In this document: piece after piece, positions 379-4,661 of the stretch | How the letters are laid out: every line of letters starts with the position of its first letter | How positions within the stretch are numbered: position 1 is the stretch's first letter | From: a virus | Lineage: Duplodnaviria > Heunggongvirae > Uroviricota > Caudoviricetes | Length of the DNA: 5,340 bases | Virus record (IMG/VR): IMGVR_UViG_2541047120_000017 | Direction: 5' to 3' (one strand) | Notes under the pieces: model-generated | Databases searched by the model: none | Told to the model about the DNA's origin: nothing | The model's input: the letters and a program-made list of their open reading frames with translations, nothing else | Made by a program: the position numbers and the translations under genes

Positions 379-666
379 TCAGATAGAGAAGGGAAATTGT
401 CGCCGAGAATGTGTCACGCTTACAATCTCAATGCTTGAAGCAGCTACTCTGTACAGGATTATGTAGTTAGGGTGGGTCACGATCTCTCTCAATCCAGAAA
501 CCCGTTCGCTTGGTGGATATAAGTACGGATGCTCAGATAGAGGTAATACCGATGTTTCAATGCGTATTTTTAGTCTACGTGCTGCCGGTGGGTTCTCCTT
601 GGCGATGTAAGTTATGATCTGGCGCAAATCATCGCGAGCAGACGGTAGCCATAAAATGGGTAACAT
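379..666 (-). CDS. parE: ParE/RelE-family toxin of a type II toxin-antitoxin system (ParE2-like, 95 aa)
   Basis: ORF track 379..666. Motifs LWLPSARDDLRQIITYIA, LPLSEHPYLYPPSERVSGLREIV and HPNYIILYRV...IEIV fit the ParE fold. Its ATG overlaps the stop of the upstream small ORF (minus-strand TAATG at 668-664). Confidence 0.85.
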   Translation of the reverse strand: MLPILWLPSARDDLRQIITYIAKENPPAARRLKIRIETSVLPLSEHPYLYPPSERVSGLREIVTHPNYIILYRVAASSIEIVSVTHSRRQFPFSI

Positions 667-857
667 TACTCGCTCTTGTTAGTTACAGCAATTTGAGCAA
701 TAAGATTTTCCATTTCAGCCATTACCTCGTCATGTGGAATTGCGGGGCGAGTGTCTGCAAGGCTTGACGTTACTTTAGTGCGCAACCATTCGTTGTAACT
801 GTTTTCTTGTTCGGTAGTTTCGAATTCTGAAACTATCGGAGAAAGGGCTGTACCCAT
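666..857 (-). CDS. paaA: Small acidic antitoxin (PaaA2-like, 63 aa) partnered with the ParE toxin
   Basis: ORF track 666..857. GAGGAG lies 7 nt upstream of the ATG at 857. The stop is coupled to the toxin start. Size and the segment SEFETTEQENSYNEWLRTKV...RPAIPHDEV match the recalled PaaA2 antitoxin. Confidence 0.75.
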   Translation of the reverse strand: MGTALSPIVSEFETTEQENSYNEWLRTKVTSSLADTRPAIPHDEVMAEMENLIAQIAVTNKSE

Positions 858-884: not shown

Positions 885-1286
885 TCACGCCCGGCGGCTT
901 TTTTGTGCCGCCAGCCACCTAGCAATGGTTTCTTCCATTGATTTTTTCTTGTCTTTGATTTCTTGAAGCATTTTTTCTTGGTCTTCCTCAGGAAACGCAC
1001 TAAAAGCTTGGAGCAGTTCGCGTTGGCGAGGACCAATTTTCATCGTGTCAGGGGTGAAAATTTGCTCACACTCTTCAGGAGGCAATAAAAACCAATGCAA
1101 TGGATGCCCTGAAACCTCAACCAGTTTATCCAAACTTGAGGCTTTAGGTGTAGCCTTACCGCTGACCCATTGTTGAACAGTTTGTTGTGTCACACCAATT
1201 CTACGGGCAAGCTCAGCCTGGCTCCATCCAGTTTCCTGAAGAAGCTTGCTGATTCTGTACATAGATACTTCTAGGGCGCTCATCAT
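885..1286 (-). CDS. paaR: DicA/cI-type HTH repressor without a peptidase domain (PaaR2-like regulator; likely prophage maintenance repressor), 133 aa
   Basis: ORF track 885..1286. XRE-type HTH (SQAELARRIGVTQQTVQQWVSGK) and a C-terminal part (RELLQAFSAFPEEDQEKMLQE) parallel DicA architecture. It is divergent from the Cro-like gene. Tandem ATGATG start with no SD; alternative start at 1283. Confidence 0.85.
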   Translation of the reverse strand: MMSALEVSMYRISKLLQETGWSQAELARRIGVTQQTVQQWVSGKATPKASSLDKLVEVSGHPLHWFLLPPEECEQIFTPDTMKIGPRQRELLQAFSAFPEEDQEKMLQEIKDKKKSMEETIARWLAAQKSRRA

Positions 1287-1394: not shown

Positions 1395-1667
1395 ATGCTA
1401 GATAGCACTCGCGAAAAAATTAGGCAGAAATACACTCAGGCTGAAATAGGTCGTTATATGGGGGTCGCTCAACAGACTGTTTGGCAATGGTTTAGCTTTG
1501 GCGTTCCCCCAAAGCAGGTAATTCCGTTATGCCAACTAATGAAGTGGGAAGTTACCCCGCATGAAATCCGCCCAGATATTTATCCTAACCCAACCGACGG
1601 TTTACCTGTTGGATGTAAGGTTAACACATCAAATGCGCCGGAGTTGATTCATGAAAATCAAGCATGA
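1395..1667 (+). CDS. Cro-like HTH regulator of the YdaS type (90 aa)
   Basis: ORF track 1395..1667. Strong SD GAGGAGGG 4-5 nt upstream. HTH segment TQAEIGRYMGVAQQTVWQWF and the VTPHEIRPDIY motif are typical of YdaS-type Cro analogues. Divergent from the repressor. Confidence 0.8.
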   Translation: MLDSTREKIRQKYTQAEIGRYMGVAQQTVWQWFSFGVPPKQVIPLCQLMKWEVTPHEIRPDIYPNPTDGLPVGCKVNTSNAPELIHENQA

Positions 1668-2076
1668 ACACATCCGCATGGCGATGAATGCCTGGGCGCA
1701 TCCGGACGGCGAAAAAGTACCGGCTGCGAAAATTACCAAAGCGTATTTCGAGCTGGGAATGACGTTCCCGGAACTGTATGACGACAGCCATCCGGAAGCC
1801 ATGGCTCGCAATACTCAGAAAATTTTCCGCTGGGTGGAGAAAGACACTCCTGATGCGGTTAAAAAAATTCAGGCGTTGTTACCAGCGATCGAAAAAGCGA
1901 TGCCGCCTCCGCTGGTGGCCCGAATGCGCAGCCACAGTTCCGCTTATTTTCGGGAGTTGGTAGAGACGAAGGAACGGCTGGTGAAAGATATTGATGATTT
2001 CGTTGCATCAGCGATCGTTCTGTTCGATCAGATGAATCGTGGTGGCCCGGCAGGAAACACTCTGGCTGTGCATTAA
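1651..2076 (+). CDS. ydaT: YdaT-type protein (CII-like regulator family, 141 aa)
   Basis: ORF track 1651..2076. GGAG 7 nt upstream of the ATG. N-terminus MKIKHEHI and overall size match the recalled Rac YdaT. Overlaps the preceding gene by 17 nt. Confidence 0.8.
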   Translation: MKIKHEHIRMAMNAWAHPDGEKVPAAKITKAYFELGMTFPELYDDSHPEAMARNTQKIFRWVEKDTPDAVKKIQALLPAIEKAMPPPLVARMRSHSSAYFRELVETKERLVKDIDDFVASAIVLFDQMNRGGPAGNTLAVH

Positions 2077-2089
2077 TTGGGTAATAAAT

Positions 2090-2599
2090 ATGAGTAATGA
2101 CAAAAAATTGACACTGAGCGTTTACGAAAACAGTCCGCACATCTGGCGTGGCGGTTTATCTGATGTGGAGCTGGCAGAGTGGTTGATACATAAAGCTAAT
2201 GCGCTGCTCTGGCGTTTGTCAGCCAGAGAACAGCGCAAGGAAACCAGAATAAAGCTGGCTGATGCAGAAGCGTGTGCCGGGCTTATTGAGGATTATACAA
2301 ATCTTGGTATTTCTTCAGCAGAGAGTGATCCCATTCAGCCTCTGAGCAGGGAGTCAATCCAGCACGCTGGTTGTATGGCACATCTTGTAACTGCTCGTCA
2401 ACATGAGGTGGGTATTGGATCACTTCCGGCGGGATATTCGCTGATTCCAGAGCTGGTTGAAGCAAGAAAATCAGTTCAGAAAAAGAGAGATGACGCACTT
2501 CAATTATTGAGAGAGCACTATGGCGCGATACCAGAATGCGAACAGCGTCGATACCCTGAAGGTTATGAATGGATGCAGTCTCTTTTTGAAGTTCGCTAA
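2090..2599 (+). CDS. Hypothetical protein of unknown function (169 aa), start chosen at MSNDKK
   Basis: In-frame ATG at 2090, 13 nt after the ydaT-like stop. Hand-counted first-codon-position base use is coding-like (G about 34 percent), and CAG>CAA, AAA>AAG. The track ORF 2039..2599 would overlap ydaT. It competes with an antisense ORF at 2283-2738. Confidence 0.55.
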   Translation: MSNDKKLTLSVYENSPHIWRGGLSDVELAEWLIHKANALLWRLSAREQRKETRIKLADAEACAGLIEDYTNLGISSAESDPIQPLSRESIQHAGCMAHLVTARQHEVGIGSLPAGYSLIPELVEARKSVQKKRDDALQLLREHYGAIPECEQRRYPEGYEWMQSLFEVR

Positions 2600-2816
2600 T
2601 CAATATGTCGAGACGAAGGTATGTTTCGGCGCGCAGCCAGGCTCTGTAATCCGGGAGCATTTCGGGGCTGTTACACCAGCGGTTTGTTGCTGCAACATTT
2701 AATACATGAGCCTGATAAAGGCTTTTCAAAAAATACATGTCGAACCTCCTCTGGTTCTGTCGATTGGGAACCACAGATTATATCCGGAGGAAGGTTCGGC
2801 ACCAGATGAGGTAGCC

Positions 2817-3908
2817 ATGCGTGATTACGCAAAAGTTTCTCCGCGATTCTGGCTGGGAGAAACGGGGAGAGAACTTAGAAAGGCGGGTGCAGAAGCGCAA
2901 GTTGTTGCTTTTTACCTGATGACATCCCCTCACGCAAATATGCTGGGTTTGTATTACCTGCCAGTTTTATACCTTGCTCATGAAACCGGGCTTGGTCTGG
3001 AAGGGGCTTCAAAGGGGCTTAAAAGGGCTGTTGAAGCTGGTTTTTGTAGCTATGACCATGATGCAGAGATGGTCTGGGTCCATGAAATGGCAGCCTGGCA
3101 GGTTGGGGAAACGTTGAAGCCTGGCGATAACCGTTGTGCAGGTGTCAGGAATGAGTATGCATCATTACCTGAAAACGCTTTTCTGTCAGTGTTTTACGAC
3201 AGATATAAAACGGATTTCCATCTGGATGTGAGGCGGAATAATAGCCGAAATTCGGTAAGGGGCTTCGAAGGGGCTTTTAAGGGGCTTCGAAGCCAAGAAC
3301 AGGAACAGGAGCAGGAGAAAGAACAGGAACAGGACAAAAACACTATGGTTCATGGCAAAAAAAACACCACGAACCAGGCAGGGGATGTTCAGACCGTCAA
3401 TCCTGGTCAGCCAGCAGGCACGACACCGGAAGCCGATTCGGGCGCTGTGCAGCAGGTGATGACCGCAGGGTCGGAGCAATCACACCAACTGCAGCAGCCT
3501 GAAGCCGATTCCGCCATTCAGCGGGAAGCCGATCGGGTAGTCCCGGAAAGCACCGGGCAGTCTGTGGGACGAGTGGATTATCCGGATGTGTTCGAACAGG
3601 TCTGGCGGGAATACCCGTTGCGTGCTGGGGCAAACCCGAAGAAATCCGCTTTCAGTGCCTGGAAGGCCAGATTGCGCGAGGGGGTGCCACCAGAGACCAT
3701 GCTGGATGGTGTGAGGCGTTACGCGAGATACCTGGCGGCGACCGGGAAAGCGGGAACGGAATTTGTTCAGCGAGCGACGACGTTTTTTGGGCCGGACCGG
3801 AATTTTGAAAACCCCTGGTTGCTCCCGGTAAGCGGCACGAACAACCAGCGTTGTGTGAATCATATTTCTGAACCGGATACCGAAATTCCGCCGGGATTCA
3901 GGGGGTGA
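2817..3908 (+). CDS. Replication initiation protein (lambda O-like role; occupies the position just upstream of the DnaC-like gene), about 363 aa
   Basis: ORF track 2706..3908. Start preferred at the ATG at 2817 because GAGG lies 5 nt upstream, whereas the ATG at 2706 has no SD. N-terminal domain, low-complexity E/Q-rich linker and C-terminal domain. Iteron-like DNA repeats lie inside the gene. Immediately followed by the helicase-loader gene. Confidence 0.8.
   Translation: MRDYAKVSPRFWLGETGRELRKAGAEAQVVAFYLMTSPHANMLGLYYLPVLYLAHETGLGLEGASKGLKRAVEAGFCSYDHDAEMVWVHEMAAWQVGETLKPGDNRCAGVRNEYASLPENAFLSVFYDRYKTDFHLDVRRNNSRNSVRGFEGAFKGLRSQEQEQEQEKEQEQDKNTMVHGKKNTTNQAGDVQTVNPGQPAGTTPEADSGAVQQVMTAGSEQSHQLQQPEADSAIQREADRVVPESTGQSVGRVDYPDVFEQVWREYPLRAGANPKKSAFSAWKARLREGVPPETMLDGVRRYARYLAATGKAGTEFVQRATTFFGPDRNFENPWLLPVSGTNNQRCVNHISEPDTEIPPGFRG
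2988..3030. repeat. Iteron-like cluster A: GGGCTT-type motifs at 2988, 3004, 3014 and 3025 (AAGGGGCTTC / AAAGGGGCTT / AAAAGGGCTG)
   Basis: Direct repeats at 10-11 bp spacing inside the initiator coding sequence. Successive copies are read in different codon frames. Confidence 0.4.
3257..3289. repeat. Iteron-like cluster B: three tandem 11-bp units AAGGGGCTTCG / AAGGGGCTTTT / AAGGGGCTTCG
   Basis: Exact tandem repeats with 11-bp period. The three copies are translated in three different frames (RGF / EGAF / KGLR), so the repeat is a DNA-level feature. Confidence 0.5.
3297..3338 (+). repeat. Hexanucleotide tandem repeat (GAACAG)n, 7 units with variants, encoding an (EQ)n linker
   Basis: Units GAACAG GAACAG GAGCAG GAGAAA GAACAG GAACAG GACAAA read directly from the sequence. 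In frame with the initiator gene. Confidence 0.7.
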
Positions 3909-3914
3909 TGTGGC

Positions 3915-4661
3915 ATGAAAAACATTGCGGCAGCCGGGGTTCTTGAACGTATTCGCAGACTTGCACCACAGGCGTCGGTTCCACCGTACCGGACGGTGGA
4001 GGAGTGGCGGGAATGGCAACTTGCTGAAGGACGAAAACGCAGCGAGGAGATTAACCGCCAGAATCACCAGTTGCGGGTGGAAAAAATCCTGAATCGTTCG
4101 GGCATCCAGCCTCTGCACAGCAAATGCTCGTTTGCGAATTATCAGGTGCAGAACGACGGGCAAAAATACGCGCTGAGCCAGGCCAAATCCATAGCTGACG
4201 AACTGATGACCGGGTGCACGAATTTTGTGTTCAGCGGTAAAACCGGCACCGGGAAAAATCACCTTGCAGCGGCGATGGGTAACCGGCTGATGGCGAAGGG
4301 GCGCAGCGTGATTATCGTCACCGTGTCTGATGTCATGAGCGTGTTGCATGACAGCTACGACAACGGCAAATCCGGGGAAAAATTTTTACAGGAGCTTTGC
4401 AGTGTTGATTTGCTGGTCCTGGATGAAATAGGCGTTCAGCGGGAGACGAAAAACGAGCAGGTGGTATTACACCAGATAATTGATCGCCGGACAGCATCAC
4501 TGTGCAGTGTCGGGATGTTAACAAACCTGAATCATGCCGCAATGAGTACACTTCTTGGTGAGAGGATTATGGACCGCATGACCATGAACGGTGGTCGATG
4601 GGTGACGTTTAACTGGGATAGCTGGCGTCCAAATGTCAGCAATATGAGGGTTGTGAAGTAA
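3915..4661 (+). CDS. dnaC: DnaC-type AAA+ helicase loader (phage replication protein; YdaV-position), 248 aa
   Basis: ORF track 3915..4661. Walker A FSGKTGTGKNHLAAA, with the GKN variant characteristic of DnaC. Walker B LLVLDEIG. C-terminal WVTFNWDSWR resembles the DnaC C-terminus. SD GGGGGTGA upstream. Confidence 0.9.
   Translation: MKNIAAAGVLERIRRLAPQASVPPYRTVEEWREWQLAEGRKRSEEINRQNHQLRVEKILNRSGIQPLHSKCSFANYQVQNDGQKYALSQAKSIADELMTGCTNFVFSGKTGTGKNHLAAAMGNRLMAKGRSVIIVTVSDVMSVLHDSYDNGKSGEKFLQELCSVDLLVLDEIGVQRETKNEQVVLHQIIDRRTASLCSVGMLTNLNHAAMSTLLGERIMDRMTMNGGRWVTFNWDSWRPNVSNMRVVK

Follow-up and report, generated by a model that had tools for sequence, protein, structure and literature searches.

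The DNA at positions 2077-2816 of the window (the whole stretch of 5,340 nucleotides that was analysed) is likely to be a single mobile cassette of two genes, which form a convergent and overlapping coding pair and which, we infer, are expressed in a mutually exclusive manner. The two open reading frames, here called the plus ORF and the minus ORF after their strands, run towards each other and share their last ~105 codons. Judged from the conservation of the two frames and from their substitution patterns, both ORFs appear to be protein-coding. Both families are already catalogued as hypothetical, and full-text searches found no account of the obligatory overlap between them.

Two opposed genes behind ydaT

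The window is a CP-933P/Sp12-type immunity region of E. coli O157:H7, with ~450 E. coli O157:H7 chromosomes being 100% identical to it across the ORF at 2090-2599. The early operon is of the PR type, in the order ydaS-ydaT-...-rep-dnaC (Table 1). Both paaR2-paaA2-parE2 and ydaS-ydaT of CP-933P/Sp12 have been characterised and reporters exist, with the published map passing from ydaT to 'o' and neither gene of the cassette being drawn (PMC8630535).

Table 1. Features of the immunity region and of the cassette, in window coordinates
Feature	Position	Strand	Remarks
ParE2	379-666	-	paaR2-paaA2-parE2 repressor operon
PaaA2	666-857	-	repressor operon
PaaR2, CI analogue	885-1286	-	repressor operon
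YdaS, Cro analogue	1395-1667	+	PR-type early operon
YdaT operator, published, TTGATTCATGAAAATCAA	1644-1661		exact match
YdaT, CII analogue	1651-2076	+	PR-type early operon
Plus ORF, 169 aa, phrog_8304 family	2090-2599	+	co-oriented with the PR-type early operon
Minus ORF, 151 aa, ECs1072-family phage-associated protein	2283-2738	-	co-oriented with paaR2-paaA2-parE2
Dual-coding segment, 317 nt	2283-2599	both	tail-to-tail; both ORFs
Proximal inverted-repeat arm	2737-2755	-	contains the Shine-Dalgarno sequence and start codon of the minus ORF
Shine-Dalgarno GAGGAGG of the minus ORF	2745-2751	-	6 nt before the ATG (2738-2736)
Putative sigma-70 promoter of the minus ORF	2777-2805	-	by eye: weak -35-like CTGGTG (2805-2800), 17-nt spacer, -10 TATAAT (2782-2777)
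Distal inverted-repeat arm, 5'-TGGTGCCGAACCTTCCTCC	2786-2812	-	complementary to the SD/ATG arm
Replication initiator (rep)	start 2817	+	start from RefSeq and PHROG homologues; ORF-maximal start 2706
DnaC-like loader	3915-4661	+	

The plus ORF opens with an ATG at 2090 and closes with a TAA at 2597-2599, giving the 169 codons that a preliminary description made from the DNA alone had ascribed to it. That description had also called the ORF tightly packed, which is true of its left side, where it begins 13 nt past the stop of the YdaT/CII-like gene, but not of its right side, where 217 nt separate it from the next plus-strand gene; this space, together with the 3' two-thirds of the plus ORF, is filled by the minus-strand gene. 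The view that the ORF is more than a chance opening is borne out by its first 64 codons, which are coding-like, by a profile match and by a family of 45 protein clusters. The match is to phrog_8304, a profile of unknown function, and places residues 1-169 on positions 1-169 (E 4.2e-120), a score which suggests that this PHROG profile is built from near-identical members only. A profile search reaches full-length homologues down to ~30% identity within the 45 clusters, from Escherichia, Salmonella, Klebsiella, Serratia, Yokenella, Izhakiella and Enterobacter, and this wider family (~30-50% identity) is not described as such. Its proteins are 136-276 aa long, with a single cluster shorter than 146 aa (P0056, 136 aa) once the partial 89-aa sequence P0055 is set aside from the count. 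The most conserved motif, TLxVxKxSPHIWxGGL..LAxWL..ANA, lies outside the overlap, and the final 20-40 residues vary in both length and sequence. In most lineages the conserved start is preceded by a GGAGG-type Shine-Dalgarno (SD) sequence, of which the copy in the window is weak (ttgggtaataaatATG).

As the preliminary description had it, the plus ORF shows no helix-turn-helix, no transmembrane segment and no functional family, with searches of Pfam, NCBIfam and PADLOC empty and the protein soluble and acidic (pI 5.9). The AF2 model is all-helical (pLDDT 74.1, pTM 0.53), with a long helix at 25-70 followed by confident helices at 87-102 and 120-144 that run through the overlap; the hyper-conserved N-terminal 24 residues are poorly ordered and the pLDDT is ~50 after residue 150. 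In the two records inspected RefSeq/PGAP leaves the plus ORF un-annotated.

The minus ORF is WP_000273724.1, the sole CDS at the locus in the same two RefSeq records, and it matches NCBIfam NF033230 with 105.3 bits (cutoff 70, E 2.7e-30) over model positions 3-141 of 142. NF033230 is a 'hypothetical equivalog' that consists of a name only, without function, structure or paper, and its annotation is silent on any overlap with a second conserved gene; the term 'ECs1072' has a single match in the full-text literature, a microarray table. An exhaustive HMMER search takes the family to 18-24% identity with 23 representatives, and a scan of the genome contigs with the family found no locus. No match was found for the minus ORF in Pfam or PADLOC. 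Its product is acidic and soluble, with an AF2 model that is a compact all-alpha domain (pLDDT 90.4, pTM 0.86) even from an input of only 20 sequences, and its most conserved motif, PDYRAWLRAExYLRLDxLI, also lies outside the overlap. The minus ORF is the better-supported gene of the pair.

Searches for the function of the two proteins gave little to go on, with PDB sequence profiles returning nothing meaningful for either, the predicted models of both showing no resemblance to solved structures or to viral predicted structures, and no homologue of either in 50,697 GenBank phage records. The anti-defence, superinfection-exclusion or host-takeover role suggested in the preliminary description gains no direct support, as there is no defence or anti-defence model match in PADLOC and no structural analogue for either protein. 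A type II toxin-antitoxin pair was considered and rejected, the genes being convergent and without any toxin or antitoxin domain in Pfam, NCBIfam or PADLOC; the true toxin-antitoxin system of the window is paaA2-parE2 at 379-857.

Joint conservation and substitution patterns

For both proteins homology searches found relatives of full length, and the two diverge in step, from 99% to ~50% identity in Salmonella. In the 15 distinct lineages whose DNA was examined (L085 belongs to the L074 lineage and is not counted separately) both ORFs are present, convergent and in the same phase, the first codon positions of the two frames facing each other and the second position of each facing the third of the other. 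The overlap is 257-323 nt in these 15 and 239-323 nt over all the lineages, and the frames stay open down to ~30% protein identity. Sampling was unbiased from either side; the plus ORF is intact in all five lineages that were found through minus-protein patterns only (L092, L093, L094, L095 and L106), and the minus ORF is intact in all six that were found through the plus protein only (L074-L077, L089 and L090). There are two exceptions; in L073 a 1-nt deletion breaks the plus ORF, a recent frameshift beyond which the rest of the frame is still open, and L083a is a solo minus copy with the plus ORF missing opposite it. A second pair in the latter lineage, L083b, has the same kind of leader and architecture and was dropped from the family, its proteins being without detectable homology to those of the cassette (hhalign probabilities 1.6% and 0.3%).

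These two losses are in keeping with a reading in which the minus ORF alone is a gene and the plus ORF is its shadow, kept open fortuitously or through the amino-acid make-up of the minus protein. The same reading may draw on the annotation by PGAP of the minus ORF alone, on the difference in pLDDT between the models (90 for minus, 74 for plus) and on the finding that long antiparallel ORFs in prokaryotes are usually without selection (bioRxiv 10.1101/724807), which therefore sets a prior against dual coding. It is countered by the 64 plus codons that lie outside the minus gene, where no shadow is possible and where the top conserved motif of the plus family is found, and by the presence of the SD sequence at the conserved plus start in most lineages. 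It is also countered by a shuffle test, in which the protein was kept fixed, its synonymous codons were redrawn 20,000 times and the opposite frame was scored as open or closed. The opposite frame was open in 0.3-30% of the draws per lineage, and multiplied over 8 lineages sharing <~65% identity these probabilities come to 8.6e-12 for the plus frame given the minus proteins and 1.5e-13 for the minus frame; both frames are conserved in diverged relatives beyond chance.

Substitutions were pooled over four phylogenetically independent pairs (window/L070, L077/L081, L075/L089 and L074/L090). Outside the overlap both genes have the position pattern 3 > 1 > 2 of ordinary coding sequence, with rates of 0.27/0.21/0.48 in plus codons 1-64, and the pN/pS is 0.44 for those plus codons (250 codons, pS 0.575, pN 0.253, p=7e-14) and 0.49 for the minus frame (202 codons, pS 0.562, pN 0.275, p=3e-9). 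For the plus ORF, whose N-terminal 62-64 codons are free of the overlap, the comparison of the window with L070 gives Sd 10, Nd 5 and a pN/pS of 0.14. Inside the overlap the three-base periodicity of substitution collapses, and the pN/pS is 0.53 for the minus frame (364 codons, pS 0.402, pN 0.213, p=6e-9) and 0.93 for the plus frame, a value not different from 1 (363 codons, pS 0.274, pN 0.257, p=0.57). Third-position divergence is lower inside the overlap than outside it in both frames (plus, 0.231 against 0.484, p=1e-10; minus, 0.335 against 0.455, p=0.005), and synonymous divergence drops with it (plus, p=2e-9; minus, p=0.003). As a control, shadow frames of the same phase were scored opposite those parts of each gene that do not overlap, and such true shadow frames have a pN/pS of 1.36-1.65, with stop codons in 5-8% of their codon columns, as against 0.93-0.96 and zero stops within either ORF for the frames of the overlap.

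The plus-frame value of 0.93 could be claimed for the shadow reading, yet the absence of the stops that control frames acquire and the depressed synonymous rate of the minus frame argue against it, although constraint at the RNA level could be an alternative source of that depression. On balance a plus ORF that is merely a shadow seems quite improbable. The shared DNA is dominated by the minus gene, and the plus gene is under strong constraint in its first 64 codons and weak constraint beyond, the latter weak because its pN/pS in the overlap does not differ from 1. A weak case for plus-frame constraint in the overlap may be made, mainly from the avoidance of stops and the depressed minus-frame synonymous rate.

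Polymorphism within O157 gives a further view, with 19 SNPs in 2077-2816 over 14 haplotypes. In the minus frame 7 are synonymous and 6 non-synonymous (P=0.013), with one allele nonsense, and in the non-overlapped minus part all three are synonymous. In the plus frame 3 are synonymous and 11 non-synonymous, which is the neutral expectation (P=0.64) with no constraint visible and again is what a plus-frame shadow might give. These plus-frame SNPs would fit a gene of the lytic operon that is under relaxed selection within a cryptic prophage, and would fit equally well a plus ORF of little importance.

It is also conceivable that both genes are real and that the plus protein depends on no more than its N-terminal ~65-100 residues, with the overlapped C-terminus a tolerated run-on; the shared DNA would then be translated from both strands but functional as protein from one. 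The near-neutral pN/pS in the overlap points this way, as do the variable last 20-40 residues, the wide range of protein lengths and the low pLDDT after residue 150. Truncations should then be common, yet P0056 is the one cluster among 45 that falls below 146 aa. Furthermore P113, Y/F at 116 and L122, which lie far inside the overlap, show little or no variation among 43 sequences, two confident AF2 helices lie within this part of the protein, and 0.93 is still below the pN/pS of true shadow frames. A tail that is simply tolerated is unlikely.

The reverse of the first reading, with the plus ORF the only gene and the minus ORF its shadow, can hardly be credited. It would explain the phrog_8304 match and the orientation of the plus ORF with the operon, but not a minus ORF which has a curated family model, an invariant SD sequence, an AF2 model at pLDDT 90.4, a pN/pS of 0.49-0.53 (p<1e-8 in the overlap as well as beyond it), only synonymous O157 SNPs in its non-overlapped part and a joint probability of 1.5e-13 of being open by chance. 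The preliminary description had named evidence that the antisense ORF is the real gene as grounds for refuting its own view, and this has come about by half. The minus ORF is indeed a real gene, as NF033230, WP_000273724.1, the confident model and purifying selection all indicate, but the plus ORF survives this because the two are co-conserved.

Leader, inverted repeat and putative promoter

Upstream of the minus ORF is a leader block, '...GAACC(N)(A)AGGAGGTTCGAC ATG' (also written '...GAACC(N)AAGGAGGTTCGAC ATG'), that is near-invariant in the window, L070, L073-L077, L080, L081, L083a/b, L089, L090 and L092, in contrast to the ~30% protein identity among the lineages that bear it. Variants are found in L093-L095, and L106 has the SD sequence alone. 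A second invariant block, TGGTGCCGAACCTTCC on the minus strand, is located ~35-55 nt farther upstream and is complementary to the SD/ATG block. In the window this distal arm stops 4 nt short of the rep ATG (2817), and it is kept wherever the flanking genes differ and is missing in L106. The arms of the inverted repeat pair as 2738-2747/2792-2801 and 2744-2755/2801-2812.

For 11 lineages RNAalifold gives a consensus stem of 13 bp with one compensatory change, the start codon going from ATG to GTG and its partner from U to C, and some changes that preserve G-U pairs. The fold energy is -27.6 kcal/mol (z -2.5) for the minus-strand RNA and -32.5 kcal/mol (z -4.1) for the plus-strand RNA, and covariation is scarce, the arms being almost invariant, so that it neither proves an RNA structure nor assigns the strand. 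The loop, of variable length, includes a TATAAT-like box, and no Rfam family matches the leader. By eye most lineages have in the same place TTGGTG followed after 15-17 nt by TATAAT, GATAAT, TATATT, TATATC or GATATT; a consensus sigma-70 scan of 1900-3000 called no promoter, including none for the minus gene. A terminator scan over the same positions gave no minus-strand site and one plus-strand terminator-like site, inside ydaT.

The leader could be an element that sequesters the SD sequence, it could be a promoter whose transcript is without the distal arm, or it could act as a structure within the rightward early transcript. Control of the minus gene by YdaT is unsupported, as the exact operator is found only at 1644-1661 and none is near the putative promoter; a site with 2 mismatches at 2586-2603 is within chance expectation (6 matches against 3.4 expected).

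Placement, expression and known systems

The conserved block extends from the SD sequence of the plus ORF to 4 nt before the start of the next plus-strand gene, and in most contexts read that gene lies 13-17 nt past the block. The site of the cassette differs between prophages. It follows ydaT in the window and directly follows cro in Klebsiella; Serratia and Izhakiella carry it between cro and a CP76 cII-like gene, and in Salmonella it follows cox within an integrase/Cox/Ash/RecE element. In every case it lies within the early lytic operon and next to the immunity switch; the plus gene always runs in the direction of that operon and the minus gene always in that of the repressor. Comparison of the loci indicates that the pair, usually with its leader and inverted repeat, is conserved as a unit among Enterobacterales prophages with differing flanks. 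The accessory module is mobile, because it is found after cro, cII or cox in unrelated prophage backbones. The preliminary description had proposed an accessory insertion between the CII analogue and the initiator, and whilst that accessory gene of unknown function stands, the unit is a convergent two-gene cassette with a leader and not one ORF.

This arrangement suggests how the two genes might be expressed. The plus protein would be produced only while the PR-type early operon is being transcribed. For the minus gene, which has a strong RBS of its own and probably its own promoter inside the repeat, expression might require rightward transcription to be off or low, since the two units would collide and their RNAs would be fully complementary over at least 450 nt. 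To reach the replication genes rightward transcription would have to pass through the minus gene, whose own leftward transcript would be antisense to the plus gene and ydaT, and with such opposed crossing transcription both genes therefore could not be well expressed simultaneously. A repressed prophage would in this way make one small acidic helical protein and a derepressed prophage a different one. As there is no DNA-binding or enzymatic signature in either, the proteins most likely bind other proteins, and it is a guess that they are a factor expressed by the lysogen and its early-lytic counter-factor.

In phage lambda the oop/PO unit is leftward and lies between the CII gene and O, giving a 77-nt non-coding RNA with its own terminator. 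The minus unit is like oop in being leftward, between the CII gene and the initiator, and antisense to the early-right transcript, and from this position it could potentially damp early-right expression. Unlike oop it encodes a protein, of 151 aa, has a strong RBS and showed no terminator-like site, and elsewhere the cassette follows cro or cox and not cII. Accessory genes of immunity regions that are expressed from the repressed prophage are known in the form of lambda rexAB and P22 sieB, and the minus gene resembles them as an accessory gene that is oriented with the repressor, beside the switch and dispensable for the core cycle. It differs in having no similarity to them in sequence, fold or defence model, and in being inside the lytic operon on the opposite strand rather than in the repressor operon.

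A more far-reaching reading is that the cassette is ancient and co-evolving, usually with a structured leader in common, and that ~90-105 codons of two unrelated small acidic proteins are shared in a dual-coding, two-state and mutually silencing arrangement in which the minus unit holds down read-through towards the replication genes; this can be put forward only tentatively, and we regard it as rather doubtful. Tail-to-tail overlapping gene pairs are rare in bacteria, and long antisense coding overlaps in bacteria are disputed, with most candidates lacking evolutionary support. If the two-state cassette is real, then its overlap would be one of the longest and most broadly conserved antisense coding overlaps known in bacteria or phages, and one that rests on evolutionary and not only on expression evidence.

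Annotation pipelines keep one gene per locus, and therefore RefSeq retains the minus ORF and PHROGs the plus ORF, with phrog_8304 having no model in Pfam, NCBIfam or PADLOC, and the pairing has been invisible. Antisense overlapping genes have been reported from E. coli O157:H7 itself, namely ano/ECs2385 (PMC5960689) and three further genes (PMC9927249), which are reported to be short ORFs lying wholly within a conserved 'mother' gene and backed by expression data. The cassette is like them in that one organism, E. coli O157:H7, carries protein-coding ORFs on both strands of a single piece of DNA. It is unlike them, as they are reported, in that neither partner is embedded, each having a non-overlapped N-terminal part, and in that the cassette is conserved across genera with support that is evolutionary rather than experimental. 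The likely two-gene cassette makes for a clean test case because the non-overlapped parts serve as internal positive controls and the overlap is deeply conserved, and since the CP-933P/Sp12 region is characterised and reporters are at hand (PMC8630535), strand-specific expression and effects on the switch and on replication are directly testable.

Operator-like sites around the cassette

The stretch carries an immunity region of the CP-933P/Sp12 type, a type that has been studied experimentally. Published descriptions of the region pass directly from ydaT, the CII analogue, to 'o', and the genes lying in 2077-2816, those of the cassette (the convergent, overlapping plus and minus ORFs), are absent from them. 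The OM operator of YdaT is found as an exact match at 1644-1661. A further site resembling this operator, TTGAAGTTCGCTAATCAA, is present with two mismatches at the end of the plus ORF, and with six matches of up to three mismatches in the window, compared to 3.4 expected, it is within chance expectation. The repeats of TTGCTTATAGTTT between the divergent paaR2 and ydaS genes, the analogues of CI and Cro, are probably the operator repeats of PaaR2 and YdaS.

Features of the immunity region, cassette and initiator gene
Feature	Position in window	Remarks
CP-933P/Sp12-type immunity region	379-2076	parE2, paaA2, paaR2, ydaS, ydaT
13-bp repeat unit TTGCTTATAGTTT	1341-1381	about 3.2 copies; divergent paaR2/ydaS promoter region
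YdaT-operator-like site TTGAAGTTCGCTAATCAA	2586-2603	two mismatches; straddles plus-ORF stop codon
Initiator long ORF, 5' stretch	2706-2816	opens at 2706
Inverted repeat	2737-2812	both strands; brackets minus-ORF SD and ATG
11-bp repeat AAGGGGCTT(NN)	3001-3027 and 3257-3292	2.5 and 3.3 copies; within initiator gene
GAACAG-repeat stretch	3297-3342	after AAGGGGCTT(NN) repeats; encodes QEQEQEKEQEQ linker

The minus-ORF start and the initiator gene

The inverted repeat at the start of the minus ORF is near-invariant, being kept in most lineages despite unrelated flanks and protein identity of about 30%. Its consensus stem is 13 bp with one compensatory change, there is a TATAAT-like box within the loop, and Rfam gave no match for it. 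The repeat could be a leader that sequesters the SD, it could serve as a promoter or as an operator, or the structure could belong to the rightward transcript.

The minus-ORF start and leader are overlapped by the first 37 codons of the initiator long ORF, which are probably untranslated. The RefSeq CDS start is 2817 as against 2706 for the long ORF, and the alignment to PHROG homologues begins at residue 38. Further into the initiator gene, the AAGGGGCTT(NN) repeats resemble origin iterons.

Occurrence and variation

Both families occur commonly within Enterobacterales prophage regions, but tblastn against 50,697 GenBank phage records gave no match for either protein family. Cryptic elements, or ones that are seldom induced, may be the only carriers of the cassette. 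L083, a Salmonella element, has two units in tandem (2213-2909 and 3001-3462, reverse-complemented coordinates). One is a convergent overlapping pair with a 239-nt overlap, and with phase and leader DNA as in the cassette, its proteins having no significant similarity to the plus or minus family. Adjoining this pair, a minus-family gene stands alone; it starts with GTG and lacks a plus partner.

Among 14 O157 haplotypes, one has C>A at position 2447, a nonsense change (E>*) for the minus ORF that reads as P>T in the plus frame. At position 2430 the window has the rarer allele, C, with T in the other 13.
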